From a virus: 64,000 nt of DNA. The notes below the pieces were generated by a model, which saw nothing but the letters and a program-made list of their open reading frames with translations, ran no database searches and was not told where the DNA came from. Below are positions 17,615 through 39,785 of the stretch, piece after piece. Made by a program: the position numbers and the translations under genes. The number at the start of each line of letters is the position of its first letter. The first letter of the stretch is position 1. The DNA lies in the IMG/VR virus record IMGVR_UViG_3300037468_000183, positions 32,001 to 96,000 of that record. The stretch is one strand, 5' to 3'.

Positions 17615-18808
17615 TCACTTGCCGACGATCTCTTTGCCGGCAACCTTCGCCTCGGCGCGCTTCTCCAGCGCCACGCAGACGGCTTCCAGGTTCTCGGTCG
17701 TTACCTTCCGGAAGTTCTCGGCGTAGACCGCACGCAGAAGGTGCGGCATGTCGGCCTTGCCGTCCTTGCGATAGTACGGGAAGACCTGGACAAAGACCTC
17801 GCACCACTGCGCGAAGGCGTGGGCGGCCTTGCCTTCCATGTCCGCCATCTGGCCTCCGCCATGCGGCTTCGGGGCGGCGCTGCGCTCCACGGTGGCGCTC
17901 GTCATGGCGTGAAACTCCGCCTCCGCATCAGACAACGGCGGCTCGGTCGCGGGCGGTGGCTTGGACGCCGCGACGGGTGGCGGCTCCTCCTCGGCCAGGT
18001 CTTCGTCGTCGTCATCGTAGTCATCGTCATCGTCCGCGTCGTCAACGTGGCGGGCCGTCAGTTGCAACGGTTGGCCCGCGGCCAATGCCATCTGTTCCTC
18101 GGCCTCGACCTGCATCCGTGCCAACACCCACTCGGCGGCGGGCACGATCTTGACCAGGTCCTTGATGGTGCGATTGCGCCGGCCCGCAGCCTTATCCTCG
18201 TCCTTCCAGGCTGGCGTCGAGATGGATTGCTTGACGCGTAGCACGTTGAACAGGATGCCGTTGAGATGGCCGGCTTTGGTTTCGGCGTCCAGCAGACAGG
18301 CAGTGATGGAGACCAGATCATTAATGCTGTGTGTCTCCATCGTCACGAAGCCGACGAAGCCCGCCCGGATCAACTGCGGCACGATCATGCTCAGGCGCCC
18401 GACTTGCTTACAGCCGGGGTTGTCCTTCGCGCGCGTCTTGGTTCCGGTGTAGTACGGACACGGCCGTTCGCCATCGGCATAGTCGCCGTTGGCCGTGCGC
18501 CAGCGGTTCATTGTCTGACCGTCGCAACGATGCACCATACCGCCGTGGTCATATTCCTCAAACCACGTATTCCAATTCTGTTCCAGCGTCGCGAATGGCA
18601 GATAGGCCTCGATCAGCGCGGGCTTACCGCCGTATGCGGCATCGAAAGCGCGCTGCACATCCTGGCGTTCGCTCGTGAAACGCCAGTGATCCAGGTCGGG
18701 GCCGGGGCGCTTCGGGTCGGTCTTGGGGCCGCCCTTGCGGAGTTTGCCCAAGTCCGGGAACTTGGGCGTGATGTCCTGGCGTCTTGTCATGCCGACTATG
18801 GGTGACAT
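17615..18808 (-). CDS. Gp3-like (recombination directionality factor-like) phage recombination/replication protein
   Basis: FPDLGKLRKG...P.DLDHWRFT, HRCDG, CK.VGRL...P, T.S.N; acidic linker; GGAGGA RBS before 18808. Confidence 0.7.
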   Translation of the reverse strand: MSPIVGMTRRQDITPKFPDLGKLRKGGPKTDPKRPGPDLDHWRFTSERQDVQRAFDAAYGGKPALIEAYLPFATLEQNWNTWFEEYDHGGMVHRCDGQTMNRWRTANGDYADGERPCPYYTGTKTRAKDNPGCKQVGRLSMIVPQLIRAGFVGFVTMETHSINDLVSITACLLDAETKAGHLNGILFNVLRVKQSISTPAWKDEDKAAGRRNRTIKDLVKIVPAAEWVLARMQVEAEEQMALAAGQPLQLTARHVDDADDDDDYDDDDEDLAEEEPPPVAASKPPPATEPPLSDAEAEFHAMTSATVERSAAPKPHGGGQMADMEGKAAHAFAQWCEVFVQVFPYYRKDGKADMPHLLRAVYAENFRKVTTENLEAVCVALEKRAEAKVAGKEIVGK

Positions 18809-19476
18809 AAAAGTTCCTCCTCTGTATGCTCCTGTAACTTCTTGGCCTGCCACCTCGCGTTTGCCGCCGCGCTTTGCTTGGCCTTTCCATCCGGTGTAGC
18901 CAAGCGGACTTTGTGCGAGGCAGACATCTTGGCACGCGTCTCGGTGCTGTGTACGCGCCCCTTGATTGCAGCGCTGTGTTGGGCACGTGCCTCTGGATTG
19001 CTCATCTGAATTATTGCCGCGGCGCTTATCTTCTCGCGTGTCTCCGGGCTGACTACCTTGCCCCTCTGCGCCGCGCCTATCTTAGCGCGTGTTTCGGCAG
19101 TCTGCGTCCGCCCTCTCAGCATGGCGCGTATTTCGTCGCTATAGTGAACTCCCCTGCACGTCCTGGGGTGTGGAGCTATGTTATAACCATGCTCTCTGTC
19201 GTATGATCGTAACGTGTCCATCCAGTGTTGTTCGCGCTCGTCCAGCCGCGCCAAATCCTCGATGTGTTCCAGGACAATGATCTCGAAAGCCTCCCATCCG
19301 TACTTCGCAACGGCGCGATACAAAGGGTGCGGCTTCTTCCCGACCAAGCACCGATGTTGGTATATGCGCTCTCTGAGGCACTGCGCCTGACCCACGTACA
19401 CCTTGCCGCTTTCCACATGGAAGATGCCGTAGATGCCAGTAAACTTCCAGTCGCCCCAATACGCTTTCGGCATCAT
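18796..19476 (-). CDS. GIY-YIG homing endonuclease with NUMOD3-like repeats
   Basis: GIYGI...KVYVGQ...R...H...E..W...GYN; SxETRxKMS repeats. Confidence 0.9.
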   Translation of the reverse strand: MMPKAYWGDWKFTGIYGIFHVESGKVYVGQAQCLRERIYQHRCLVGKKPHPLYRAVAKYGWEAFEIIVLEHIEDLARLDEREQHWMDTLRSYDREHGYNIAPHPRTCRGVHYSDEIRAMLRGRTQTAETRAKIGAAQRGKVVSPETREKISAAAIIQMSNPEARAQHSAAIKGRVHSTETRAKMSASHKVRLATPDGKAKQSAAANARWQAKKLQEHTEEELLCHP

Positions 19477-23351: not shown

Positions 23352-23423
23352 TAGGTAAAAGGACGAGTTTTGGAAATGTGTTAAAATGTTAAGGTTCAAA
23401 CTCATAAATACGCTGCGATAAGT

Positions 23424-23452
23424 TTGACAATCTGTTATAATGGGCTTAGACT
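23424..23452 (+). promoter_or_regulatory. rightward promoter
   Basis: TTGACA-17-TAGACT plus an overlapping TGnTATAAT; AAGGAG RBS follows. Confidence 0.75.
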
Positions 23453-23473
23453 ATAAACAAAGGAGCAACAACA

Positions 23474-23683
23474 ATGAGCGAAAACGAATATCTTACCGTG
23501 GATCAGGCGGCGGAGCGTGCCAACCGCCACGCGCAGACGATCAGGAATTGGGTACGCTCAGGCAAACTACCTGCCTTTCGCCTGGGGCAATCGTATTTAA
23601 TCCGGCCCGAAGACCTCGACGCAATGTATCAGCCGGTGCAGGTCAAGCCGGTGACGACCGTCGAGCCGGAGGTGGCGCCATGA
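23474..23683 (+). CDS. excisionase/HTH_17-type DNA-binding protein
   Basis: YLTVDQAAER...TIRNWVRSGKLPAFRLG.SYLI...DL. Confidence 0.9.
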   Translation: MSENEYLTVDQAAERANRHAQTIRNWVRSGKLPAFRLGQSYLIRPEDLDAMYQPVQVKPVTTVEPEVAP

Positions 23684-23979
23684 CCTGGCCTGCATCGGGC
23701 TGGACAACGCCGCTTGGCGAAACGTCGCCGCTGATTCATGGCGTCGTTCTGGCATTGCTGGCGCTGACGATCTGGATGTACGGCCATTATTACGTCTGGC
23801 CGGTCGTCGTGCGCATCGGACAACGCGTGCCACGGCCAACGCCGCGTATGCGCACGGCTCAGGTCGCGCCACAGCCAGCGGCGGCCGATGAGGTGGACGT
23901 AATGGCGGCTGATACTGAAACCGTAGCTCAGACGACGCGGCGCGGCAAATACAACATGGGATTCGACTGGGAGCGTTAG
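23680..23979 (+). CDS. small membrane protein
   Basis: ATGA coupling; one hydrophobic helix. Confidence 0.65.
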   Translation: MTWPASGWTTPLGETSPLIHGVVLALLALTIWMYGHYYVWPVVVRIGQRVPRPTPRMRTAQVAPQPAAADEVDVMAADTETVAQTTRRGKYNMGFDWER

Positions 23980-23982
23980 GCC

Positions 23983-25485
23983 ATGAGCGGTGGAAGGTTC
24001 GCACTTGCACTGGTGGCTGGCGGGGTCGTGATTGCCGTCTGCGTGATCGCGCTGAACTTTTTCGATCCACCGGCGCAGAGCGTGCGCGCCACGAGCGCGG
24101 CGTTGACCATCGCTGAGCAGCAGGCGCTCGCGCCGACCTGGATGGACGTCAAGCGCGGACTGCTGACAAGTGCGGGCATGGGTGGTTCGGTGCTGATCGT
24201 CTCGCTGTGCCTGGGCCTCTCGTTCCTGGTGCTACGCGAGCCCTTGCTCCTCCGCCATCACAAAGGTATCTTCCCCGCGTTCTTCACCATCCTCGGACTG
24301 CGCGCCAGCGACCCGCCCGGCAACCCGGAGGCGCACGCTGAGTATGCGCGTGTGGCTGGCGTGCAACGTCCGCTCGGTCGTCCGGCGTTGCCGCGGCCCG
24401 ACGCACAACTGGCGCTGCCCGCGCCCGATGATCTCACTGTCGAGCTTGATCCCGTCGAGGTCTTGGCTCCCGAACTGGATTCGCATCCGCACAAACTCAT
24501 CATTGCCGAGAGTCGCTTCGGCAAAACCAACTTGGCGTGGGCCATCATCCGGCGCTATCAAGCGGCGCTGCCGGATTGCGAGTTCCTGGTGCTGTCGATG
24601 ATCGAAAGCAAGTGGCCCGATCTGCAAGTCGCATCCACCGGCGCGCAGATGTTGGCGGCGATGACCGCCGTCGAGCAGGAATTGATCCGGCGCGACAATC
24701 TGCTGAAGCAACTCCGAATCACGGACGTGCACGAGAGTGACGTGCTGAACGCGTTCGCCGTGGTCTTCGATGAGGTCGAGACGACTTTCGAACTGATGTC
24801 CGGCGCACAGCGCACCGAGTTTCGGCGGCTGGTAACGCGCTACGTCAACCAAGCCGGCAACGTCAAAGGCGCGTTGATCTCGCTGTCGCAAACCGGCTCA
24901 CGCGACATTCTGCCGAAGTCGATCCTGGCGAATGCAGATTTGTATATCGGGCGTTGTGGCACCTACGTGCCGGCGTCGTTCTCGATCCAGGAACCGGTGC
25001 TCGTGAACGCGCTCAGCCGGGCTGAGAAGGGCCAGTGGTATTCGTATCGTCATCGGGCCTGGTTCACGGCTCCGCTGGTCAAACCGCCACATGATGTGCG
25101 GCTGTGGAGTGGCTGGAAGCCGACGCTGGAACTCACCGCCGATGGCGAGGCGGATGGCATGGGTGCCAATGATGCACCGGACGGCGCAGCCCTACCCCTA
25201 CTCCCTACTGACGGGGAGGGGGGGGTGTGGCCCGATTTCGGAGTAGGGGTAGGCGTAGGCGACAGTAGGGGATATACATTTGCCATCGATGAGACCTTCA
25301 AGCGGCGCGTTCTGGAGGTTTGGGATGGTCTGGAGAAGCCGAACTATACTGCCGTCCAGAAGATTATGTTTCCCGATCAGGAAGACGGCGGGGCGCACTG
25401 GAAGGCCATCAAGGCGGTCATCATCGCGCGCCGTGAGGTAGAGCGCCAGCGGCATCGCAAGCAATACCTGGAGGCAACAGCATGA
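23983..25485 (+). CDS. membrane-anchored FtsK/TraB-like P-loop ATPase
   Basis: Two N-terminal TM segments, Pro-rich linker, PHKLIIAESRFGKT (Walker A), ELIRR, VVFDE (Walker B), LSQ, small C-terminal domain. Confidence 0.65.
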   Translation: MSGGRFALALVAGGVVIAVCVIALNFFDPPAQSVRATSAALTIAEQQALAPTWMDVKRGLLTSAGMGGSVLIVSLCLGLSFLVLREPLLLRHHKGIFPAFFTILGLRASDPPGNPEAHAEYARVAGVQRPLGRPALPRPDAQLALPAPDDLTVELDPVEVLAPELDSHPHKLIIAESRFGKTNLAWAIIRRYQAALPDCEFLVLSMIESKWPDLQVASTGAQMLAAMTAVEQELIRRDNLLKQLRITDVHESDVLNAFAVVFDEVETTFELMSGAQRTEFRRLVTRYVNQAGNVKGALISLSQTGSRDILPKSILANADLYIGRCGTYVPASFSIQEPVLVNALSRAEKGQWYSYRHRAWFTAPLVKPPHDVRLWSGWKPTLELTADGEADGMGANDAPDGAALPLLPTDGEGGVWPDFGVGVGVGDSRGYTFAIDETFKRRVLEVWDGLEKPNYTAVQKIMFPDQEDGGAHWKAIKAVIIARREVERQRHRKQYLEATA

Positions 25486-25594
25486 AAGCCTGGCTATGGT
25501 TCGGCCTGGGCATGTTGACGATGTGGGTGCTCAGCAATCCGGGCATGTTCAAAGCCTGGCTGCTCAGCGCCTTCGCGATTATGGGAGTACACTG
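25482..25594 (+). CDS. tiny hydrophobic membrane peptide
   Basis: GGAGG RBS; MKAWLWFGLGMLTMWVLSNPGMFKAWLL... Confidence 0.5.
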
Positions 25595-25596
25595 AC

Positions 25597-26079
25597 ATGG
25601 CAACCATCATCGTTGCCGCGCCGCAATGCACGCCGGCGCGCTACTGGCAGACGCGTGTCGAGGGCCAGCTTGCAGAGTATGGCGCAAAACAGGCCGGCCT
25701 GCGCGTCGATGCGGAGGAAGTCGGGAAGTCCTACATCCGCATCAAGGTTGACGTTTCGGACGACTACGCCAACTTTGCCGAGTATACGCTACTGCGTTTC
25801 GGCTATCAGCAGATGTCGAAGCCCATCAATCCCAAGAATCAAAAGTTGGCGAAACGCTATCTCGACTTGGCGGCGGCTGGCGCATCATGGCAGGAAGCCG
25901 GCTGCAAGACGAAAAACAAAGGCGCGGTCATCGGGGAGCTTGGCGTGAGTGCGCCGGTGCCATCCTGGAAATCTCAGGGCAAACTATGGAGTCAAGGCTA
26001 TAAGCCGGCGACCAAACGCCGCAAGGCGCGTCAGCACAAGGGTGCTTTGCGGACATGGCTGGAGGATTTGCTACCATGA
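25597..26079 (+). CDS. basic hypothetical protein
   Basis: GGGAG RBS; operon position. Confidence 0.65.
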   Translation: MATIIVAAPQCTPARYWQTRVEGQLAEYGAKQAGLRVDAEEVGKSYIRIKVDVSDDYANFAEYTLLRFGYQQMSKPINPKNQKLAKRYLDLAAAGASWQEAGCKTKNKGAVIGELGVSAPVPSWKSQGKLWSQGYKPATKRRKARQHKGALRTWLEDLLP

Positions 26080-26551
26080 CCCTGCCGCAACTGCTCGCCA
26101 TCGCCGCTGGCATCGCCAGCATCATCCTGGTGCTGATCGACAACGAGCGCATCGCGGCACGCTCACCGCCAACGGACGCCACGGAGGACACGCCCGAACC
26201 GCAGCCGGCCATCCGGCTGAACTCATGGGATGAGCAGGAGCGATACATTCGGAGGGAGAAACCATGACCGGAGCATATTGGCCCGCGGCGACTTGGCCCG
26301 CAGATGACAACACGGAGGAAGCCATGACCGGAACGACACCACCGAAACAGCCGAGCACGACACTTGTCGCGTACTGTCCAGAGTGCTTTGGGATGCGCAT
26401 GATCCTGTGTCGCGAGAACATTGTGAGCGACCGGCCGCAAGCGTATTGGTTCGCCTGCACGGACTGTGGGGTAGAAACGACTCATGCGCCAACGCTCAGC
26501 GCCGTCAGAGACATGGTGCGCTGGGTGCCGATTGACGCCACGCTGGACTAG
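26076..26551 (+). CDS. small TM protein (26076-26267) and Zn-ribbon protein (26264-26551)
   Basis: ATGA couplings; CPEC...CTDC. Confidence 0.55.
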
Positions 26552-26566
26552 GCTGGACGCACCGCA

Positions 26567-26606
26567 AATGGCAAGGCCGACTTCTTGCGGAGTCGGCCTT
26601 GTCATT
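26567..26606. terminator. bidirectional hairpin
   Basis: Long inverted repeat between convergent ORFs. Confidence 0.65.
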
Positions 26607-27299: not shown

Positions 27300-27797
27300 A
27301 TGAAGATGAATGCCACCGAGCTACGCGCGTTTATTGCAGATCGCTACAACGACGATGAGCTGCGCGCGTTGGCGTTTGATCTTGGCATTCCGTTTGAGGA
27401 TTTAGGCGCACCAGATAGCGGCAAAACCGCACGCGTGCAAGCTCTCATCGAGTGGTGTAATCGTCATGGCCGCTACGCAGAACTGGAAACCACCGCTCGC
27501 CGCGCGCGTACATCCGCCACGGCAGCCCGGCCCGCGCCCGCGATGAATGACTGGGGGCCAGCCGGCATTGATCGCATGGTGCGTCACATGGATGAGCTAC
27601 GCGAGGATGTGGCCGAGCTGGTGACGAAAGTCGAGCTCCAGAACCAGAGGCTCGCGATGCTGGAGAAGCACATTGATAGGATCATCGAGCATCCGCGGTC
27701 AGTATCCTGGCAGACGTGGGCCGTGGCCATCATCGGTCTCGGAATGGCCGTGGCGCTGGTCTACAGCGTCGGACAGTTCTTGCTAGGCGGGCACTAA
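27300..27797 (+). CDS. effector-associated domain (EAD7-like) plus coiled coil plus C-terminal TM protein
   Basis: LRAFIADRYNDDELRALAFDLGIPFEDL...K..RV.ALIEWC.RHGR..EL. Confidence 0.7.
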   Translation: MKMNATELRAFIADRYNDDELRALAFDLGIPFEDLGAPDSGKTARVQALIEWCNRHGRYAELETTARRARTSATAARPAPAMNDWGPAGIDRMVRHMDELREDVAELVTKVELQNQRLAMLEKHIDRIIEHPRSVSWQTWAVAIIGLGMAVALVYSVGQFLLGGH

Positions 27798-28237
27798 TGG
27801 CAGATTATCCGCGTGAGGGTGTCGTCATCCTGTACGCGCTGCTGACGGCGACGCAGATTTATCTCGCGTTGCTATGGGCGCTGGGCCGGCTGCGACCGCT
27901 CGGCGTCGTCTGGAATACGCTCACCTATCTCGTGCTGGCGCTGGCGTTTGGCTTGACGACGCTGGGCACGTTCAACCCACCGCTCGTCAACCTGGTCGAG
28001 CAGCGCTGGCTGTTGCGGGCCTGTTATACGGCATACCTCGTCTTGTGCGTCTTCGCCATCCTGACACATTGGTTTTCGCTGTTTCGGCAGACGATGCGGC
28101 GCGACGCGGAGGACGCCCGACGCATTGCTGAGGCACGGCAGATCGTGGCGGAGGATCGGCGGCGCATAGCGGAGGATGCGCGCACCGCTGAGCAGGATGC
28201 ACGCAAGCATCCAGCGGATTCTCCGCCAGCATCCTGA
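27797..28237 (+). CDS. 3-TM membrane protein with charged tail (holin candidate)
   Basis: TAATG coupling; three hydrophobic helices; AEDARR repeats. Confidence 0.6.
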   Translation: MADYPREGVVILYALLTATQIYLALLWALGRLRPLGVVWNTLTYLVLALAFGLTTLGTFNPPLVNLVEQRWLLRACYTAYLVLCVFAILTHWFSLFRQTMRRDAEDARRIAEARQIVAEDRRRIAEDARTAEQDARKHPADSPPAS

Positions 28238-28357
28238 TGTGTGGCAGATGGCGCGCTGAACCTCCATCAGCCTGGCAGCGCCACCGGGGTTTGACATTGG
28301 CTGCGGAAGGTCGAGCGCGCAGACCTGTCTGCCACACGACATAACGGAGGCGACATA

Positions 28358-28615
28358 ATGACAGCAACCGGCGACAAGACGGCCGTATACGAGATCCCGG
28401 AGGCGCGCGAGATCGAGCCGATCCCATCGCAGCAACAGGCTCCGCATCTCTACGATTGGGCGACTCTCGCGCTGGCGATTGCCGGTATCATCGCGATCCT
28501 GGGTATGTTCGTGCTCTCGTTGCTTGGCAAGCCTGTGCCCGAGGGCATCGGCACGCTCGGCGGTGTGGCGCTTGGCGCGCTCGCGGGCATGGTGGCAGTC
28601 AGTCGCAAGCCGTAG
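28358..28615 (+). CDS. 2-TM holin-like protein
   Basis: GGAGG RBS; TM-GKPVPEG-TM. Confidence 0.6.
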   Translation: MTATGDKTAVYEIPEAREIEPIPSQQQAPHLYDWATLALAIAGIIAILGMFVLSLLGKPVPEGIGTLGGVALGALAGMVAVSRKP

Positions 28616-28920: not shown

Positions 28921-29062
28921 GGATGACATTGAGCCGACACGTTACCGACAGTGAGCCGACATCTAGCCGACATTCCGATAGTAATGATAACCCGTCAAGA
29001 GGGATTGACAACGAACGATACAGCTTGCTGACATTCAGCCGACATTCAGCCGACATTCAGCC
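28921..29062. repeat. 11-bp-phased (AGCC)GACA repeat arrays
   Basis: GACA at 28925, 28936, 28947, 28958 and 28969; GACATTCAGCC x3 at 29030-29062. Confidence 0.85.
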
Positions 29063-29133
29063 AGCGGCAAAATCATAATGCGCAAAACTGGCCTATTGCG
29101 TTTTCGCGCATCCGGGTGTATGCTTGTGACGCC

Positions 29134-30489
29134 ATGAATCTAAGCGAGTTTCGTCCCGCACGAGTCAACGCAAATCGCCACACGGCGCGCGGCATCGGCG
29201 CGCTCGAAAAGAGCATCCAGTCAGACGGCTGGATCGGCGCGATGACCACCGCCGCCGATGGCGAGATGATCGCCGGCAGCGCCCGCATCGAGACGGCGGC
29301 GGGCGTGTTCGGCGTGGACGCGGAGCCGGTTGTCATCCACAGCGACGGCAAGCGGCCTATTGTTGTCATTCGCGATGACATCCCGAACGCGTCAACGAAG
29401 GTCGCGCAACGGCTGGCGCTGGCGGACAATCGCATTCACCAGCTTGACCTGGACTTCGACGTGCAGGTGCTCACCAGCTTCGATGCCGACGTGCTGGAAG
29501 GCTTGTGGACGGGCGACGAAATCAGCGACATGGGCCAGCAGTGGGCGGATGAGCAGAGCCGCAACGCCGAAGACCCCGGCGCGCAAGTGGACAAGGCGGA
29601 GGAACTGCAAGCCAAGTGGCACGTGCAACCCGGCGACCTGTGGGCGATGGGTGACCACCGTCTGCTGTGCGGAGATTGTCGGGAGCCTGCATCCTGGGTG
29701 CGCTTGCTTGCGGGCGTCAAGGCCAATGGCGTTTTCACATCCCCGCCTTATGCCGAGCAGCGCAAGGAGCAATACGGCGGGACACCAGCCGCCGAATACG
29801 TGGCATGGTGGGAAGCGGTGCAGGCCAACGTCAAGGCGCATCTCGCGCCCGATGGTTCGTTCTTCGTGAACATCAAGCCGCACTGCGCAGACGGCGAGCG
29901 TGTGCTGTACGTGTTTGATCTGGTGCTGGCGATGAAGCGGGAGTGGGGCTGGCGTTTCGTGGATGAGTTGTGTTGGACAAACCGGGGATTCCCTGGCGAG
30001 CCGCAAGACAGATTCCAGAACGCTTTTGAGCCGGTATATCACTTTTCGGATGGAAAAATCAAGTTTCGCCCAAAGGCCGTTTGGCATTCAAGCGATTCGG
30101 TTCCCGTACACAAGGCGGGGCAGAACTTCAGGCAATCCAATCGAGGAAACGGCTTTGAGAGTCCAGACGTAGAAAGCGGGATGGCCTACCCTCGCAATGT
30201 CCTGGATATCCCAAATGGCAATGGCGGAGATTCGCGACACGCTGCCGCCTTTCCAGTCGCGTTGCCTGACTTCTTCGTGCGCGCCTACTCGGACGCCGGC
30301 GACGTGTGGCTTGATCCGTTCTGCGGCAGTGGCACGACGATTGTCGCCGCGCACAACAACAAGCGGCGGGGATTCGGAATCGAGATGCTGCCGAAGTATT
30401 GCGCCGTGATCCTGGAACGCATCAGCGGCCTGGGGATTACGCCTGCACTGTTGAGCAATGGGGGAACTGTGGCCGATGGCGGGCGCTGA
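29134..30489 (+). CDS. ParB/Srx-like N-terminal domain fused to a DNA amino-methyltransferase
   Basis: SI..DGW...IAGSAR...ALADNR; GDLW.MGDHRLLCGD; TSPPY; LDPFCGSGTT; TTGCGT-17-TATGCT just upstream. Confidence 0.85.
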   Translation: MNLSEFRPARVNANRHTARGIGALEKSIQSDGWIGAMTTAADGEMIAGSARIETAAGVFGVDAEPVVIHSDGKRPIVVIRDDIPNASTKVAQRLALADNRIHQLDLDFDVQVLTSFDADVLEGLWTGDEISDMGQQWADEQSRNAEDPGAQVDKAEELQAKWHVQPGDLWAMGDHRLLCGDCREPASWVRLLAGVKANGVFTSPPYAEQRKEQYGGTPAAEYVAWWEAVQANVKAHLAPDGSFFVNIKPHCADGERVLYVFDLVLAMKREWGWRFVDELCWTNRGFPGEPQDRFQNAFEPVYHFSDGKIKFRPKAVWHSSDSVPVHKAGQNFRQSNRGNGFESPDVESGMAYPRNVLDIPNGNGGDSRHAAAFPVALPDFFVRAYSDAGDVWLDPFCGSGTTIVAAHNNKRRGFGIEMLPKYCAVILERISGLGITPALLSNGGTVADGGR

Positions 30490-30820
30490 AAACCTGAAGC
30501 CGTTTGTCAAAGGCGATCCGCGCATTAACCGCAAGGGCCGACCTCGCACCTTCGACGCGCTGCGCGAGCTTGCGCAACAGATCGCGCATGAGACCGTCAA
30601 GGACAAGAGCGGCGATCCCGTCGTCGTCGAGGGCCACGCCGCGACGGTGACCGAGATCATCCTGCGCAAGTGGGCGGCCAGCAATGATCCCCGCTTGCAG
30701 ATGGCGTTCGTGGAAGTCGCCTACGGCAAAGAGGCGCTCAAGGCCGAAATCAGCGGGGCCAATGGTGGCACGCTCGATATCCATGTGATCTACGATGCCA
30801 AGCCAGAACAGACGGGTTGA
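30476..30820 (+). CDS. terminase small subunit (DUF5681-like N-terminus)
   Basis: NLKPFVKGDPRINRKGRP...EISGANGG, directly before terL. Confidence 0.75.
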   Translation: MAGAENLKPFVKGDPRINRKGRPRTFDALRELAQQIAHETVKDKSGDPVVVEGHAATVTEIILRKWAASNDPRLQMAFVEVAYGKEALKAEISGANGGTLDIHVIYDAKPEQTG

Positions 30821-32039
30821 CGTGCATCTGCCGACGCCGCACCAGCGCCAGGCGGAGTTCATCGCGTCCGGCGTGCCGAGAAAATGTGTCCGGGCAGGCA
30901 GACGCGGCGGGAAAACGGTCGGCGTGTCTGTGCTGGCCGTCGAGCAATTCCTGGCCGGCAAGCGCATCCTATACGGCGCGCCGACGACTGAGCAGGTGGA
31001 TCGCTTCTGGACGACCGTCACGCGCGCGCTGGCCGAGCCGATCGCGCGCAAGGTCTTCTACAAAAACGAGACCGAGCACGTCATCGAGCGCCTGGGCACG
31101 GAGCAGCGCATCCGGGCCAAAACGTGCTGGAACAGCAATACCCTGCGTGGCGATTACGCCGACGTTTTGATCCTGGACGAATGGCAACTCATGGACGAAG
31201 CCGCCTGGGATGAGGTCGGCGCGCCGATGCTGCTCGATAACAACGGTGACGCGATCTTCATTTACACGCCGCCCAGCCTGCATTCTCGTAGCGTCTCGAA
31301 GGCGCGTGATCCGCAACATGCGGCGAAGATGTTCAAGCGGGCGCAAGGGGACACGTCCGGCAGATGGCAGACGTTCCACTTCACGAGTCGCGAGAATCCG
31401 CACATCTCGACGGCGGCGCTGGACGAAATCGCGCACGACATGACGGCCGTAGCCTATCGCATGGAGATCATGGCCGAAGATGTGGACGAAGCGCCTGGCG
31501 CACTCTGGAAGCGCGAGCACCTCGACAGCGGGCGAGTGCTCCAAGCGCCCGAACTCAAGCGCGTCTTCGTGGGTGTCGATCCTTCCGGCAGCGTCGGCGG
31601 CGATGCGACTGGCATTGTGACGGTGGGTGGCGTCGGCAATCAGCTTTTTGTGCTGGCCGATGACACGCTCAACGGCACGCCGCTAGAATGGGCGAAAGCT
31701 GCCGTGACTGCCTACTATCGCCACGGCGCTAACGGCATCGTGGCAGAGGCCAACTTTGGCGGTGACATGGTGCTCCAGACGATTCGCACGGTAGACGCCA
31801 ATGTACCGGTCAAGCTGGTCACGGCTTCCCGCTCGAAGCAAGTGCGCGCCGAGCCGGTAGCAGCGGTCTTCGAGCAACAGCGCGGCCATCTCGTCGGCAC
31901 GTTTCCGGCGCTGGAAGACGAGCTTGTGCTGTGGACGCCCGGCGATGCGTCACCGAATCGACTCGACGCTATGGTCTGGGCGGCGACCGATTTGCTGAGC
32001 AGACGACATTATGACAAACCTGGCGCAGTGGGGTACTGA
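30795..32039 (+). CDS. terL: terminase large subunit
   Basis: AGRRGGKT, LRG, ILDE, VGVDP, EANFGG, K..RAEP, LDA.VWA. Confidence 0.95.
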   Translation: MPSQNRRVDVHLPTPHQRQAEFIASGVPRKCVRAGRRGGKTVGVSVLAVEQFLAGKRILYGAPTTEQVDRFWTTVTRALAEPIARKVFYKNETEHVIERLGTEQRIRAKTCWNSNTLRGDYADVLILDEWQLMDEAAWDEVGAPMLLDNNGDAIFIYTPPSLHSRSVSKARDPQHAAKMFKRAQGDTSGRWQTFHFTSRENPHISTAALDEIAHDMTAVAYRMEIMAEDVDEAPGALWKREHLDSGRVLQAPELKRVFVGVDPSGSVGGDATGIVTVGGVGNQLFVLADDTLNGTPLEWAKAAVTAYYRHGANGIVAEANFGGDMVLQTIRTVDANVPVKLVTASRSKQVRAEPVAAVFEQQRGHLVGTFPALEDELVLWTPGDASPNRLDAMVWAATDLLSRRHYDKPGAVGY

Positions 32040-33544
32040 TGGCTGATGACGTGCGGCTGAGTTTCCTGTCATGGTTGGCGCAGCAGGACACCGAGCGCGA
32101 GCAGGGTTATCGCTTGTATCGCGAGTATTATGATGGCGACCACGATACGCAACTCACCGACCGGATGCGCAAGTACTTGCAAGTCAAATCGCACGTCGAG
32201 TTTCGCGCGAATTATTGTCCCATCGTCGTGGACGCGCTGGCGGAGCGTCTGAACATCACTGGCATAACGGCCGAGGATCAATCGGCGGTGCTGTGGGGCT
32301 GGTGGACAGCGGGCCGCCTCGATGGCTTGCAGGTGGTCTTGCACACGGCGGCGCCACGCGACGGGGACGCTTATGTGCTCGTGGAATGGGACGCCGAAAC
32401 CCTGACACCCAAGTTCTTCTTCGAGCCGGCTTTCGACGGCGGCGATGGCGTGCAGGTGGTTTATGACGACGCGACCAACACGCCAAGCATGGCCATCAAG
32501 CGTTGGCGCGCCAAGTCGGGGCCGGGGGCGGGCTATCTGCGGCGCATCAACGTCTACTACCCGGATCGCGTCGAAAAGTATGTGTCAAGCGACAAAGACC
32601 AGAGCGGCCAGTGGCAGAAATTCAAGGAGGACAACGAAGCTTGGCCGATGCCGTGGCTGCGCGCGGACGGGCGGCCGATGGGCATTCCGATTGTCCACTA
32701 CAAGAACCGCGATCAAGGCACGAACTATGGGCAGTCCGAACTCAAGGACGTGCTGCCGCTCCAGAACGCGCTGAACAAAGCTGTCATCGACCTGCTGGCC
32801 GCGGCGGATACCACCGCCTTCCGCATTTATTGGATGCTTGGCGACGATCCGTCTGCCGTGTCCGTGTCACCCGGCTCATGGGTCTACAGCACCAAGCCGC
32901 CATCGGGCGACGACGCGGCCAGCCTAGGCTATTTCCCCGGCGAAGACCTTGCCAATCTGATCGGCCTCAAAGACTCGCTCGCGATTGAGATTGCGCGAGT
33001 ATCCAGGACGCCGGTAAGCTACTTCCAGGTAAGCGGCCAACGGCCAGCCGAGGGCACGCTCAAACAGGAGGAGAGCGGTCTCGTCGGACGGGCACGTGCG
33101 CGCATGGTGTCATTCGGCAATGCCTGGGAGGACGCCTTCGGCATTGCGCGCAAGATGTGGAATGAATGGGGCGACGGCGATCCGCTCGATGAAGCCGTGC
33201 CGATCACGATTGTTTGGAAGGATCCGGAAACGCGCAACGACAAGGCGCTGTTGGAAACGCTCAAAATCAAGGCTGATCTGGGCGTGCCGAAACAGCAGCT
33301 TTGGACAGAGATGGGCTACAGCGCCGACGAAATCGAGCATATGCAGGAGATGGTAGACGAGGAACAGTCCAGCCAGGCTGACCTGGGCGAGACGTTGCTG
33401 AACGCCTTCGAGAAAGCGCCACGCATGGCGGCGACGGGCCAGATGCCGCCACAGATGCCGGCGCAGGCGACCGAGATTGCGCAGGCCGAGCCGGAAGATG
33501 AGATGGACGGTGATGGCGGCGGGGTGCCGAGTGATGCCCGATAA
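32039..33544 (+). CDS. portal protein (SPP1 gp6-like)
   Basis: YYDGDH, NYC.IVVD..AERL, GDAY, G.SEL...LQ; position after terL. Confidence 0.9.
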   Translation: MADDVRLSFLSWLAQQDTEREQGYRLYREYYDGDHDTQLTDRMRKYLQVKSHVEFRANYCPIVVDALAERLNITGITAEDQSAVLWGWWTAGRLDGLQVVLHTAAPRDGDAYVLVEWDAETLTPKFFFEPAFDGGDGVQVVYDDATNTPSMAIKRWRAKSGPGAGYLRRINVYYPDRVEKYVSSDKDQSGQWQKFKEDNEAWPMPWLRADGRPMGIPIVHYKNRDQGTNYGQSELKDVLPLQNALNKAVIDLLAAADTTAFRIYWMLGDDPSAVSVSPGSWVYSTKPPSGDDAASLGYFPGEDLANLIGLKDSLAIEIARVSRTPVSYFQVSGQRPAEGTLKQEESGLVGRARARMVSFGNAWEDAFGIARKMWNEWGDGDPLDEAVPITIVWKDPETRNDKALLETLKIKADLGVPKQQLWTEMGYSADEIEHMQEMVDEEQSSQADLGETLLNAFEKAPRMAATGQMPPQMPAQATEIAQAEPEDEMDGDGGGVPSDAR

Positions 33545-35222
33545 CGTCACGCTTCTCCAGGGCGACTGCCGCGACGTGCTGCGCGAGATGGCGCGTCAGA
33601 ACGGCACAGGGCCGCGCTTCACGGCGCTTGTGACCGATCCGCCTGCGGGGATTTCGTTCATGGGAAAAGAGTGGGACAACCCCAATGGCGTTTCCCGCAC
33701 TGGTTCAGGCATCGGGCAGGAAGGCAAGGATGCCGATTATGACCGCTACGGCAAGGGTGCGATGCCCTACGGCTACAGCGGATCGAATGCCGGACGCAAT
33801 ATCACAGACCGAGAAGCCTTCATCGCAACCATGACCGAGATCGCCGCCCTCGCGCTCGACCTGTGTCTGCCCGGCGCTCATGCGCTCGTGTGGGCGCTGC
33901 CACGCACGTCGCACTGGACGGCGACGGCCTGGGAGAATGGCGGGTGGGAAGTCAGGGACAGGATTCGGTACGCATCCTCGAAGGACGCCAAAGTTGCCGC
34001 ATTTCTGGCATCGTTGACGGATGAGCAGCGCAAGGCGTTGGAGGTCATCTCTGACGATTCGGGAGTATCACATTGCTTCGGTTCTGGCTTCCCCAAGTCG
34101 CTCGACGTGAGCAAGGCACTCGACAAGGCCGCGGGCATGGAGCGGGAAGTGGTAGCGGGCCGAGGATGGCATCATTCAACGGGGCGCGGGAATGGGATGG
34201 CGGGAAATGCCGATGAATCATGGCCTAAGCCATACGAGGCGGGAGATGCGGCACGAGGCGAACCTATCACCGCCCCTGCGACCGCCCTGGCGCGCGAGTG
34301 GGCGGGCTACGGCTCGGCACTCAAGCCTGCCATCGAAGACTGGTGGCTGCTGCGCAAGCCGCTCGACGGGACGATCGCTGGCAATGCGGCAAAGCACGGC
34401 TGCGGGGCGTTGAATGTGGACGGATGCAGGGTGGAACTAGACGATGCTGCGAAGTCCATGCTTGGAAAGGCGAAACAGCGCACGAATAAGCCGAGCGGCA
34501 AAGGATTGCATCACGATCCTGATTCAACGGTTGAGCGCGAACGATTACAAGCCGAAATTGACACATTCAAAGCAAGCGGTCGCTTCCCCGCGCATCTCAT
34601 CACAGACGGCAGCGAGGAGGTGACGGCGTGCTTTCCGTCACCGCATGGAGCTGGCTTCAAGAGGAATCCATATGCGGACGGCAAGGGAGAAACCGGCATT
34701 TATGGCGCTTATGGCGGCGAAGGTGTTGGCGGTGCGAGAATAGGCGACACCGGCTCTGCGGCCCGCTTCTTCGCCGTCTGCCCGCCGGATGCCGATGCGC
34801 CACGGCTCGCGTACATCCCGAAGGCGAGCCGGCGCGAGCGCGAGGCGGGGTGCGATGGGTTGGAGTTTCATGGACGAAATGAGGTATACGGCGACGGATT
34901 CAACACGGCAACAAAGTGTGATCCGTCAATGCACACCACAGAAAGCGTAGAGGCGCGTCCGCAAGTGCGTAACGGACATCCCACGGTCAAGCCGCTTGCA
35001 CTTTGCAGATATCTGCTCACCCTGCTGCGCCAGCCGACCGTCAACCTCGTGCTTGATCCATTCATGGGTTCCGGTTCGACGGGCGTGGCGTGCGTGCAGC
35101 TTGGCATCCCGTTTGTGGGGATCGAACGCGATCCTGAGTATTTCGAGATCGCACGAAGGCGCATCGCACACGCGCAGGAGCAGATGGCGGCGCAACCGCT
35201 CGCGCAACTGGAACTGCTGTAA
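33534..35222 (+). CDS. DNA methyltransferase (DPPA variant)
   Basis: VTDPPAGISFMGKEWD, GSGFPKS, HPTVKP, LDPFMGSGST. Confidence 0.9.
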   Translation: MPDNVTLLQGDCRDVLREMARQNGTGPRFTALVTDPPAGISFMGKEWDNPNGVSRTGSGIGQEGKDADYDRYGKGAMPYGYSGSNAGRNITDREAFIATMTEIAALALDLCLPGAHALVWALPRTSHWTATAWENGGWEVRDRIRYASSKDAKVAAFLASLTDEQRKALEVISDDSGVSHCFGSGFPKSLDVSKALDKAAGMEREVVAGRGWHHSTGRGNGMAGNADESWPKPYEAGDAARGEPITAPATALAREWAGYGSALKPAIEDWWLLRKPLDGTIAGNAAKHGCGALNVDGCRVELDDAAKSMLGKAKQRTNKPSGKGLHHDPDSTVERERLQAEIDTFKASGRFPAHLITDGSEEVTACFPSPHGAGFKRNPYADGKGETGIYGAYGGEGVGGARIGDTGSAARFFAVCPPDADAPRLAYIPKASRREREAGCDGLEFHGRNEVYGDGFNTATKCDPSMHTTESVEARPQVRNGHPTVKPLALCRYLLTLLRQPTVNLVLDPFMGSGSTGVACVQLGIPFVGIERDPEYFEIARRRIAHAQEQMAAQPLAQLELL

Positions 35223-38384: not shown

Positions 38385-38840
38385 ATGGCTACTGCTGGAT
38401 TCGAGTTCGCCTACTCTCTGGACGGCAGCCACGCGACGCCGGTTATCCGGGATCTCCCGGTACACGGCACCGGGGCCTATGCCATCGGCGACCTGGTGGT
38501 CGTTAACGGTTCTGCGGGCGGCGAGGTGGTGCGCGTCACTAGCACGACCGCGGAAGTAACCGGCGTGATGCAGGAGACGCGGGCGTCCGGGTCGGATGCC
38601 GCGCTAATGAAGGTCGCGCTCATCATGCGGGAACAGGTCTGGCGTTGCTCGATGGACGCGGCGACCACGGCGTTCGTCGTCGGCTACACCAAGAGCATCG
38701 ACACGACGGATCACAACACCATCAGCGCGAGCGATTCGACTGGCGGCAAGATGATCCTGGTGGACAAGTCTGAACTCGATGGCGACGGCAACGTTCTGGC
38801 CTACGTGGTGTTTTCGGATACCACGTTCGGCAATACATAG
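38385..38840 (+). CDS. putative capsid decoration/cement protein, paralog 2
   Basis: Shares GFEF.Y.LDGS.ATPVIRD, QVWRCS and DTTFGN with paralog 1. Confidence 0.7.
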   Translation: MATAGFEFAYSLDGSHATPVIRDLPVHGTGAYAIGDLVVVNGSAGGEVVRVTSTTAEVTGVMQETRASGSDAALMKVALIMREQVWRCSMDAATTAFVVGYTKSIDTTDHNTISASDSTGGKMILVDKSELDGDGNVLAYVVFSDTTFGNT

Positions 38841-38852
38841 GACAGGTGACAC

Positions 38853-39761
38853 ATGGCAATCTCCGAACAATGGGCGCAGTTGCTCGAACCGGGCCTGCGC
38901 GAAGTTTTCTATCACACGGTGGAGCCGTTGGCGACCGCCAGCCGCATTCCACTGCTGTTCGACGTTGGCGGTAGCACGAAGGCCGCTGAGTCATTCCTGA
39001 GCGCCGGCGCGATGGGCAACTGGAAGACCTTCAAGGGCGCTATCGAGTATGACGACATCGACCAGGGCTACAAGACCACCCTGACGCACGAGGAATACGT
39101 GCAGGGCTTCAAGATCGAGCGCAAGCTGGTCGAAGACGACCAGTACGGGCTGTTCATGGATCGCCCGGCTGAGCTGGCAATGTCGGCCATGCGCACGCGC
39201 GAGAACCATGCGGCGAGCGTGTTCTCCAACGCCTTCACGGGCGGGGCCACTGCGGGCGGCGATGCCGTGGCGCTGTGCTCGGACTCGCATCCCAATTCGC
39301 CAGCCAACGCCGGCTCGACGCAGGACAACAACGGCTTGCTCTCGCTGAGCTACGCCAACGTCGAAGCCGTGCGCCAACTGATGCGCGCTTGGAAGGACGA
39401 CCGCGGCAATCTGATTCCCGTCAATCCCGATACGCTGCTGGTGCCGGCTGAGTTGGAGAAGACGGCCTTCGAGATCGTGCGCACGGCGAACGTGCCGGAC
39501 ACGACCGACTACAAGGCCAACTTCGTCGCCGGCTTCATCCGCCAAACCATCGTCTGGGACTATCTGACGGATGCGAATGCCTGGTTCGTCATCGACTCGA
39601 TGCGCATGAAGCAGGCGCTCAAGTGGATCGACCGGGTACCGCTGGAGTTCGCGCTCGATCCGACCAGCAATTTCCGGCTGGAGTCGCGCTGGCGCGGGTA
39701 CATGCGCTACAGCTACGGCTTCAAAGATTGGCGCTGGATTTACGGGAACAACCCGTCATAA
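38853..39761 (+). CDS. major capsid protein (Mu gpT-like)
   Basis: LLEPGL, GGD..ALCSDSHP, P..LLVP..LE..A, YLTD.NAWF, RYSYGF.DWR. Confidence 0.9.
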   Translation: MAISEQWAQLLEPGLREVFYHTVEPLATASRIPLLFDVGGSTKAAESFLSAGAMGNWKTFKGAIEYDDIDQGYKTTLTHEEYVQGFKIERKLVEDDQYGLFMDRPAELAMSAMRTRENHAASVFSNAFTGGATAGGDAVALCSDSHPNSPANAGSTQDNNGLLSLSYANVEAVRQLMRAWKDDRGNLIPVNPDTLLVPAELEKTAFEIVRTANVPDTTDYKANFVAGFIRQTIVWDYLTDANAWFVIDSMRMKQALKWIDRVPLEFALDPTSNFRLESRWRGYMRYSYGFKDWRWIYGNNPS

Positions 39762-39785
39762 GGCTACAGCCTGAGGAGGGTTGAC

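Follow-up and report, generated by a model that had tools for sequence, protein, structure and literature searches.

What might a tailed phage do with a membrane ATPase whose own gene contains an ordered array of short DNA words? The question is posed by a seven-gene operon at positions 23474-26551 of a 64-kb stretch of viral DNA. This stretch, hereafter the window, comprises bases 32001-96000 of an IMG/VR virus record (IMGVR_UViG_3300037468_000183; 104,080 bp). The same DNA, or near-identical variants, is present in sediment and freshwater-sediment metagenomes from several studies. A first-pass annotation had read the operon as a DNA-transfer module, of the type built around TraB in Streptomyces. 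In our view, there is about an even chance that the operon encodes a sequence-addressed membrane DNA pump, comparable to TraB and its clt site. Two features carry the argument:

23983 to 25485, plus strand: gene for a 500-residue membrane-anchored FtsK/SpoIIIE-family ATPase (profile, fold and transmembrane prediction)
25186 to 25270, no strand assigned: clt-like word array where the ATPase gene encodes the linker (from a k-mer scan and a repeat search)

The 500-residue protein is a diverged membrane ATPase of the FtsK/SpoIIIE family, in the FtsK/TraB/TcpA class. Searched alone, it matched no Pfam or NCBIfam model, and nothing in a PDB sequence search; there was a weak match to PHROG 1358 (FtsK/SpoIIIE-like, 3e-4). 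A profile was then built from five close relatives. With a cut-off of E<1e-3 this collected 112 cluster representatives, most of 440-550 residues. PF01580 was matched by 41 of 46 aligned relatives, and all 46 have two N-terminal hydrophobic or transmembrane helices, ~35 residues apart. In the window protein, these helices (residues 6-24 and 61-90) are separated by an outside loop. They are followed by a disordered linker, the core (148-375), a second linker (381-430) and a helix-turn-helix (HTH)-like domain (434-500). Both the alignment and an AlphaFold model contain a single ATPase domain, with a predicted local distance difference test score (pLDDT) of about 85 for the core. The best fold match to the core, in VIA, was TcpA of plasmid pCW3 (Z 20.1, root-mean-square deviation 2.5 Å over 212 residues). 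FtsK and EccC were next (both 17.7). Similarly, Foldseek of the model gave TcpA (7.5e-8) and FtsK (2.4e-6). Aligned by hhalign, over the ATPase core only, the family profile scored 98.4% with TcpA (6e-15) and 97.3% with pIJ101 Tra (2.7e-11). Hence, the first-pass annotation had the class right, as an FtsK/TraB-type ATPase with two transmembrane helices. TraB is not the nearest member of that class, however: by profile and fold, TcpA is nearer than pIJ101 Tra.

We found no match to the window ATPase, using tblastn, among deposited phages and plasmids. The relative P0020 also had no match among deposited phages; among plasmids it matched Tcp-type FtsK proteins only, in Clostridium and Bacillus rather than Streptomyces plasmids. 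(P and L numbers denote related proteins, and related loci or contigs, compared with the window.) Two scans of species representatives, covering 185,579 species genomes, yielded no true family member. Among the sequences searched, true members occur solely in uncultured viral or metagenome contigs. We conclude that these ATPases form a distinct TcpA-like family, confined to uncultured phages, and new compared with known phage FtsK-like genes.

The expected catalytic motifs are present. These are Walker A (AESRFGKT, with K181 invariant), Walker B (VVFDE, with E264 invariant) and the sensor LSQTG. The Walker A sequence had been called non-canonical in the first-pass annotation. Note that AESRFGKT fits [AG]x4GK[ST]; the true departure is loss of the GR (arginine-finger) motif, to which we return below. 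The ratio of non-synonymous to synonymous substitution (dN/dS) was 0.10 against L072 (311 codons) and 0.15 against L073 (136 codons). Such values indicate that the ATPase gene is under strong purifying selection and that the protein is in use.

The array occupies the part of the gene that encodes the disordered linker before the C-terminal domain. Three CCCTAC(T) words are followed by four (A)GTAGG(G) words in inverted orientation. In order, these are CCCTAC, CCCTACT and CCCTACTG, then a spacer with a run of eight G residues, then AGTAGGG, GTAGGC, GTAGGC and GACAGTAGGG. A perfect 14-bp inverted repeat is formed by 25191-25204 and 25240-25253. We defined an array strictly as at least three copies of a 5-mer, then at least three inverted copies, within 120 bp. 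By this definition the cluster is the only one in the window, and shuffles gave 0.05 per sequence. AGTAGGG occurs six times in the 104 kb, with four of these occurrences in the array. In L001, L005, L058 and L074 the sole strict cluster is at the same position of the ATPase gene, and L003 has an interleaved version. The words themselves are as follows:

Window and L001: CCTAC
L073 and L074: GGTACA/TGTACC
L005: GGTGC
L003: ACAACC
L058: CGGTT

Three observations suggest that selection acts on the DNA, and not on the peptide. First, the GTAGG words are kept in differing reading frames in the window and L001, a 47%-identical relative (the peptides are GVGVGVGDSR and GVGRRPVGSR respectively). Second, the layout is constant despite the change of word. 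Third, the word goes with the tail, not the motor. Hence, L001 shares the word of the window and 80% identity in the tail, while the ATPase cores are only 40% identical. Conversely, L073 and L074 have cores 79-83% identical to that of the window, but another tail and another word. The address label, consisting of a 5-7-bp word array and about 70 tail residues, has been swapped at least four times in nature. Both the embedding of an array in the linker-coding region, and the natural swap of word plus tail, are new here.

A common RNA hairpin was considered as the shared feature of the arrays and rejected, because folding was mostly no better than that of shuffles. The z-scores were mostly weak (-0.04 to -2.5), with -4.6 for L005. 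Hence, a DNA site is favoured over an RNA hairpin. Separately, the array spacer has a run of 8-9 G residues in four loci (window 25217-25226, L001 11233-11242, L073 about 391-399 and L074 about 250-257). This always codes for Gly-Gly, and slippage here could yield a pump that lacks the tail. The arrays of L005 and L003 have no G run. No G-run length variants were present in contigs of three DNA runs, although contigs hide rare variants. In L004, the sole head-to-head word cluster (CGTGT/ACACG, 193-264) is outside the ATPase gene, in a repeat-rich region near the contig end.

Folded alone, residues 426-500 are predicted to form three helices (pLDDT 84.7). In VIA, the best rows for this tail were HTH domains of the Myb, LuxR, sigma-4, small-terminase and transposase types, with Z of 6.0 or less, a range rated possibly chance. 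At these low Z values, the nearest folds are nearly all tri-helical DNA-binding domains. Foldseek with the tail model returned nothing significant (best E 1.9), and six C-terminal tails had no match in Pfam. The small C-terminal domain of the first-pass annotation therefore stands as a three-helix HTH-like model, in which no wing is predicted. On the strength of that model we call it HTH-like, not winged helix.

How does this arrangement compare with known systems? In Streptomyces, the translocase binds clt sites, which consist of direct repeats of 5-9 bp together with inverted repeats, inside or adjoining the 3' end of tra genes. For example, clt of pWTY27 has four copies of the 7-bp word TGACACC and overlaps traA by 16 bp; TraA has two transmembrane helices. 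That of pJV1 has nine 9-bp repeats, pIJ101 has three 5-bp repeats and an inverted repeat, and the 8-bp repeats of pSVH1 are read by the TraB tail (PMC3583192, PMC4447253).

The Streptomyces systems, in which TraB or TraA (Tra, KilA) is paired with clt on plasmids and integrative and conjugative elements of actinomycetes (AICEs), are like the window in several respects. There is a single, N-terminally anchored, FtsK-type ATPase with a C-terminal domain for DNA reading (putatively so in the window). Short direct and inverted repeats are present within the 3' end of the tra gene, or next to it. Small membrane-protein genes lie alongside, with no relaxase and no type IV secretion genes. The pump reading is favoured because the module shares this logic of published clt sites; we call the array clt-like by its layout and position. 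The 104-kb record has no match to Mob_Pre, Relaxase or AAA_10 (VirB4-like), other relaxase families not having been searched. That the operon comes without a relaxase or VirB4-like ATPase in the record supports a TraB-like reading.

There are also differences. Only the ATPase core of pIJ101 Tra aligns with the window family (148 columns, 16% identity). The window tail is a predicted all-helical HTH, unlike the winged HTH of TraB, and the array precedes the tail, in the DNA that codes for the linker. Homologues of Spd, KilB and GntR-type TraR are absent, and the element is a tailed phage from sediment rather than a plasmid. TcpA, of the Clostridium perfringens Tcp plasmids (PDB 6o1x), is both the nearest solved fold and the nearest plasmid-borne sequence. 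Like the window ATPase, it has two N-terminal transmembrane helices and one FtsK-like domain. Unlike it, TcpA works with a relaxase, TcpM, and a VirB4-like ATPase, and no docking repeats are known from its own gene. Among phages, Cluster J mycobacteriophages (Omega gp203) encode an FtsK-like motor with a divergent, fast-changing, gamma-like DNA-binding tail. In contrast to the window ATPase, these proteins have no membrane domain, are about 60% identical to host FtsK, and have no docking array described (PMC3706429). The Streptomyces plasmid-phage pZL12 (Zhong et al. 2010) is reported to have both a virion cycle and tra-dependent conjugal transfer (cited in PMC4487206, PMC3583192). It is the precedent for one element with both routes, as proposed in the first-pass annotation, but differs in being an actinomycete plasmid with ParAB. 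In the literature searched, we found no description of a docking site in the linker-coding part of a pump's own gene.

The ATPase gene is the third of seven tightly coupled plus-strand open reading frames, with ATGA overlaps at three gene junctions. The operon outline drawn in the first-pass annotation, with its own rightward promoter and closing hairpin, was borne out. The remaining features are:

23424 to 23452, plus strand: sigma-70-like promoter, TTGACA-17-TAGACT (consensus match only), in an AT-rich divergent intergenic control region
23474 to 23683, plus strand: 69-residue excisionase/MerR-type HTH protein (HTH_17), first gene (Pfam 1.2e-14, TIGR01764 4.8e-12)
23680 to 23979, plus strand: 99-residue protein with a single transmembrane helix, ATGA-coupled to the HTH gene
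25482 to 25595, plus strand: 37-residue two-helix hydrophobic hairpin peptide, ATGA-coupled to the ATPase stop
25597 to 26079, plus strand: 160-residue soluble partner of no known family, with invariant C11, W98 and C103 and a basic tail
26055 to 26267, plus strand: 70-residue protein with a single transmembrane helix, not found in relatives
26264 to 26551, plus strand: 95-residue protein with two CxxC pairs, zinc-ribbon-like (weak zinc-ribbon matches only)
26567 to 26606, no strand assigned: hairpin with 16-nt arms and an 8-nt loop, between the operon and a converging minus-strand open reading frame

The Xis-like nature of the first protein is confirmed by its HTH_17 and TIGR01764 matches. 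An AAGGAG Shine-Dalgarno sequence is upstream of its gene, and its C-terminal end is also found upstream of the ATPase in L072. For the last protein, the proposed zinc ribbon holds as far as the two CxxC pairs go, and the family matches remain weak. The hairpin is a probable two-way terminator. Only the 99-residue, 37-residue and 160-residue proteins recur in relatives. Briefly, the 99-residue protein has a positional homologue (z 4.5 against shuffles) that precedes the ATPase in L072; the likeness in L001 is weaker. The 37-residue peptide is conserved after the ATPase in L073 and L074. The 160-residue protein has homologues immediately after the ATPase in both L001 and L058, with identities of 56% and 29% respectively (E 6e-8 for L058). 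In an Atlas search with this partner, template-modelling scores were all <0.5; its N-terminal half is ferredoxin-like. The 95-residue protein has a homologue only in L003, elsewhere than beside the ATPase. Pfam has no family for the small membrane proteins.

In two distant family members, the place of the 99-residue transmembrane protein is taken by a small protein with the motif FT.D.DED.AAR.FE.RFG.PP, encoded just upstream of the ATPase (L058 7663-7998 and L004 about 1380-1580). Contigs 90-95% like window 23400-26600, covering parts of the ATPase and 160-residue protein genes, were present in a sediment metatranscriptome (run X13). Note that these represent a related variant, that DNA carry-over is possible, and that they are not evidence of transcription for this phage.

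For binding of the word by the tail, hexamer formation, and DNA transport with its direction and purpose, we infer the following scheme. The two transmembrane helices would insert the protein, leaving the FtsK-type ATPase in the cytoplasm, presumably as a hexameric ring. The C-terminal three-helix HTH would read the 5-7-bp head-to-head words of its own gene, at 25186-25270, and this reading would mark the phage genome as cargo. The ring would then drive double-stranded phage DNA through a membrane or septum. Likely accessory parts are the 99-residue transmembrane protein, the 37-residue peptide and the 160-residue protein, and the HTH_17 protein is a likely regulator. If the operon is such a pump, its most likely use would be virion-free delivery of phage DNA into an adjacent cell or compartment. 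Overall, we place virion-free passage to neighbouring cells first among possible uses, but only tentatively.

Several points weigh against this scheme. In the window protein and its nearest relatives (P0001, P0002 and L073), Walker A is AESRFGKT, where the family has GxTGSGKS/T. In the same four sequences the family motif MGRKxG has become (A/V)GNVKG, so that the arginine is gone (QAGNVKG in the window). We take the arginine of the GR(K/S)xG motif to be the FtsK arginine finger, corresponding to PaFtsK R620. Since the arginine is lost and Walker A is deviant, the motor may be slow or altered. A lysine two residues after the lost arginine might substitute, and the ATPase cycle may differ from that of relatives. 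The tail and array are adjacent in the gene, so joint inheritance is expected even without binding. Their co-variation is therefore not independent proof that one binds the other. The tail has no predicted wing, and its fold matches do not rise above noise. Small membrane proteins are mostly not conserved across the ATPase family. These proteins had been likened to Spd in the first-pass annotation. However, tblastn of the small proteins against pIJ101 gave only E of 0.03 or worse, over hydrophobic stretches, and none resembles the Spd proteins of that plasmid, so the likeness falls away. Finally, multicellularity of the host is hypothetical.

For the filamentous Chloroflexota host supposed in the first-pass annotation, there are two weak hints. 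EAD7 and CyanoTRADDas_TM proteins, whose domains are enriched in multicellular bacteria, are encoded just downstream of the module. In addition, Atlas neighbours are labelled Uroviricota, Cyanobacteriota and Chloroflexota. As an observation on this neighbouring block (window 27300-28615), it encodes a membrane-tethered EAD7 protein (Pfam 3e-16), a multi-transmembrane protein and a CyanoTRADDas_TM-like protein with two transmembrane helices (2.9e-4). The block recurs in L003, at 70-78% protein identity, in a different position and orientation relative to the ATPase.

Left of the module, on the minus strand, are genes for a DnaB-like helicase, a primase and a Gp3-like protein. To the right are genes for a methyltransferase, TerS, TerL (Terminase_6C) and an SPP1-type portal. 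The module is therefore between the early and late arms, as it is in related contigs. Profile searches of the whole 104-kb record gave no match to Phage_integrase, Resolvase or ParB_N. The first-pass annotation had linked the module to absence of an integrase, and had named beforehand integrase-bearing relatives as a point that would count against its reading. Four of five related viral contigs carry a recombinase. Three of these are tyrosine integrases, and the fourth is a 553-residue serine recombinase in L001, a complete, terminally repeated genome. Hence, the module is not tied to integrase loss. AICEs combine an integrase with TraB and, for this reason, we do not count the integrases of relatives against the mechanism. 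The Gp3-like protein (412 residues, window 17615-18853) is of the phiC31 recombination directionality factor type, yet the record has no serine or tyrosine recombinase.

What else might the operon do? The best of the alternatives, although an unlikely one, is superinfection exclusion. Here, the pump of an infected or lysogenic cell would recognize the array on incoming DNA of a like phage, and expel it or stall its entry. The operon is in an early or immunity-side control region, with its own promoter, and the family is present in temperate phages with integrases. Furthermore, related phages vary the word and tail while keeping the motor, a pattern that conflict between phages could yield. However, on DNA entering from one end, one site in the interior makes a poor target, and we know of no exclusion protein of this class. 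PADLOC had no defence model for the ATPase, the partner or the membrane proteins; of the operon products only the HTH protein was matched.

Slightly less probable again is a role in segregation. Like FtsK or SpoIIIE, the pump would move replicating or episomal phage DNA across closing septa, during division or in the formation of spores or resting cells. The FtsK-family fold and membrane anchor would suit this, as would a record with neither integrase nor ParB. Relatives with the same module do carry integrases, however. Moreover, the distribution of AGTAGGG, concentrated in the array, is that of one loading site and not of genome-wide polar words.

There is a smaller chance that the pump does not dock at the array. 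Instead, the array could be a slippery-run hairpin giving a tail-less isoform, a recombination joint for tail swapping, or a replication origin. The ori of phage lambda, for instance, lies within gene O. Consistent with such roles, four loci retain the G run although any Gly codon would serve, and the L005 array folds well as RNA. Contigs of run X1 also change over from window-type to L001-type sequence, or back, precisely at the array, with loose ends at 25189 and 25230. Conversely, for L073 and L074 the z-scores of RNA folding are close to zero, the arms in the window are not in one nested register, and two arrays do without the G run. Length variants of the run are missing from contigs (where rare ones would be hidden), and the replication genes are on the other arm of the genome. 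Lastly, protein export by a type VII EssC/EccC-like ATPase, with the 160-residue partner as a possible small substrate, is very improbable: EccC/EssC domains are near FtsK in the fold search (Z 17-18) and a conserved small partner gene is downstream, but there is one ATPase domain and not three in tandem as in EssC/EccC, the tail is of a putative DNA-binding type and accompanied by a DNA word array, and the other operon proteins, HTH_17 aside, have no Pfam family.

Some observations concern the wider record. Designated G000 (window 1-64000 plus L060-L062), it resembles ~1.6 tandem units of two related, diverged phage genomes. Positions 30289-33711 and 94612-98041 of G000 are 86% identical, and 38789-39773 and 103095-104080 are 87% identical. 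There are also two differing late modules, with a P27-type TerS and TerL at G000 43-2065, and Terminase_6C at window 30795. This structure is either a tandem of two phages or a join made in assembly. No k-mer cluster in the entire record is stronger than that at window 28925-29070. All five copies of AGCCGACA in the record are located here, with degenerate copies, in two 11-bp-phased arrays. Between the two arrays, shortly before the methyltransferase/TerS/TerL operon, is a promoter-like site, and the cluster may be a regulator or packaging site.

A TraB/clt-like pump is the reading that we prefer, and its consequences can be stated. With a conserved motor and swapped labels, the family is a clean test system, in which specificity is open to binding assays and domain swaps. 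A docking site within the linker-coding DNA of the pump's own gene is a compact design, even should the pump serve exclusion or segregation. It is possible, although we hold this only loosely, that tailed phages of multicellular or filamentous non-actinomycetes have a second, virion-free route, by which naked double-stranded DNA travels via a self-encoded pump with an exchangeable address label. Should the pump carry phage DNA from cell to cell, an infection could advance through filaments or biofilms with no need of particles, receptors or lysis. In that case, the measurement of phage host range, burst size and gene flow in sediments would change.

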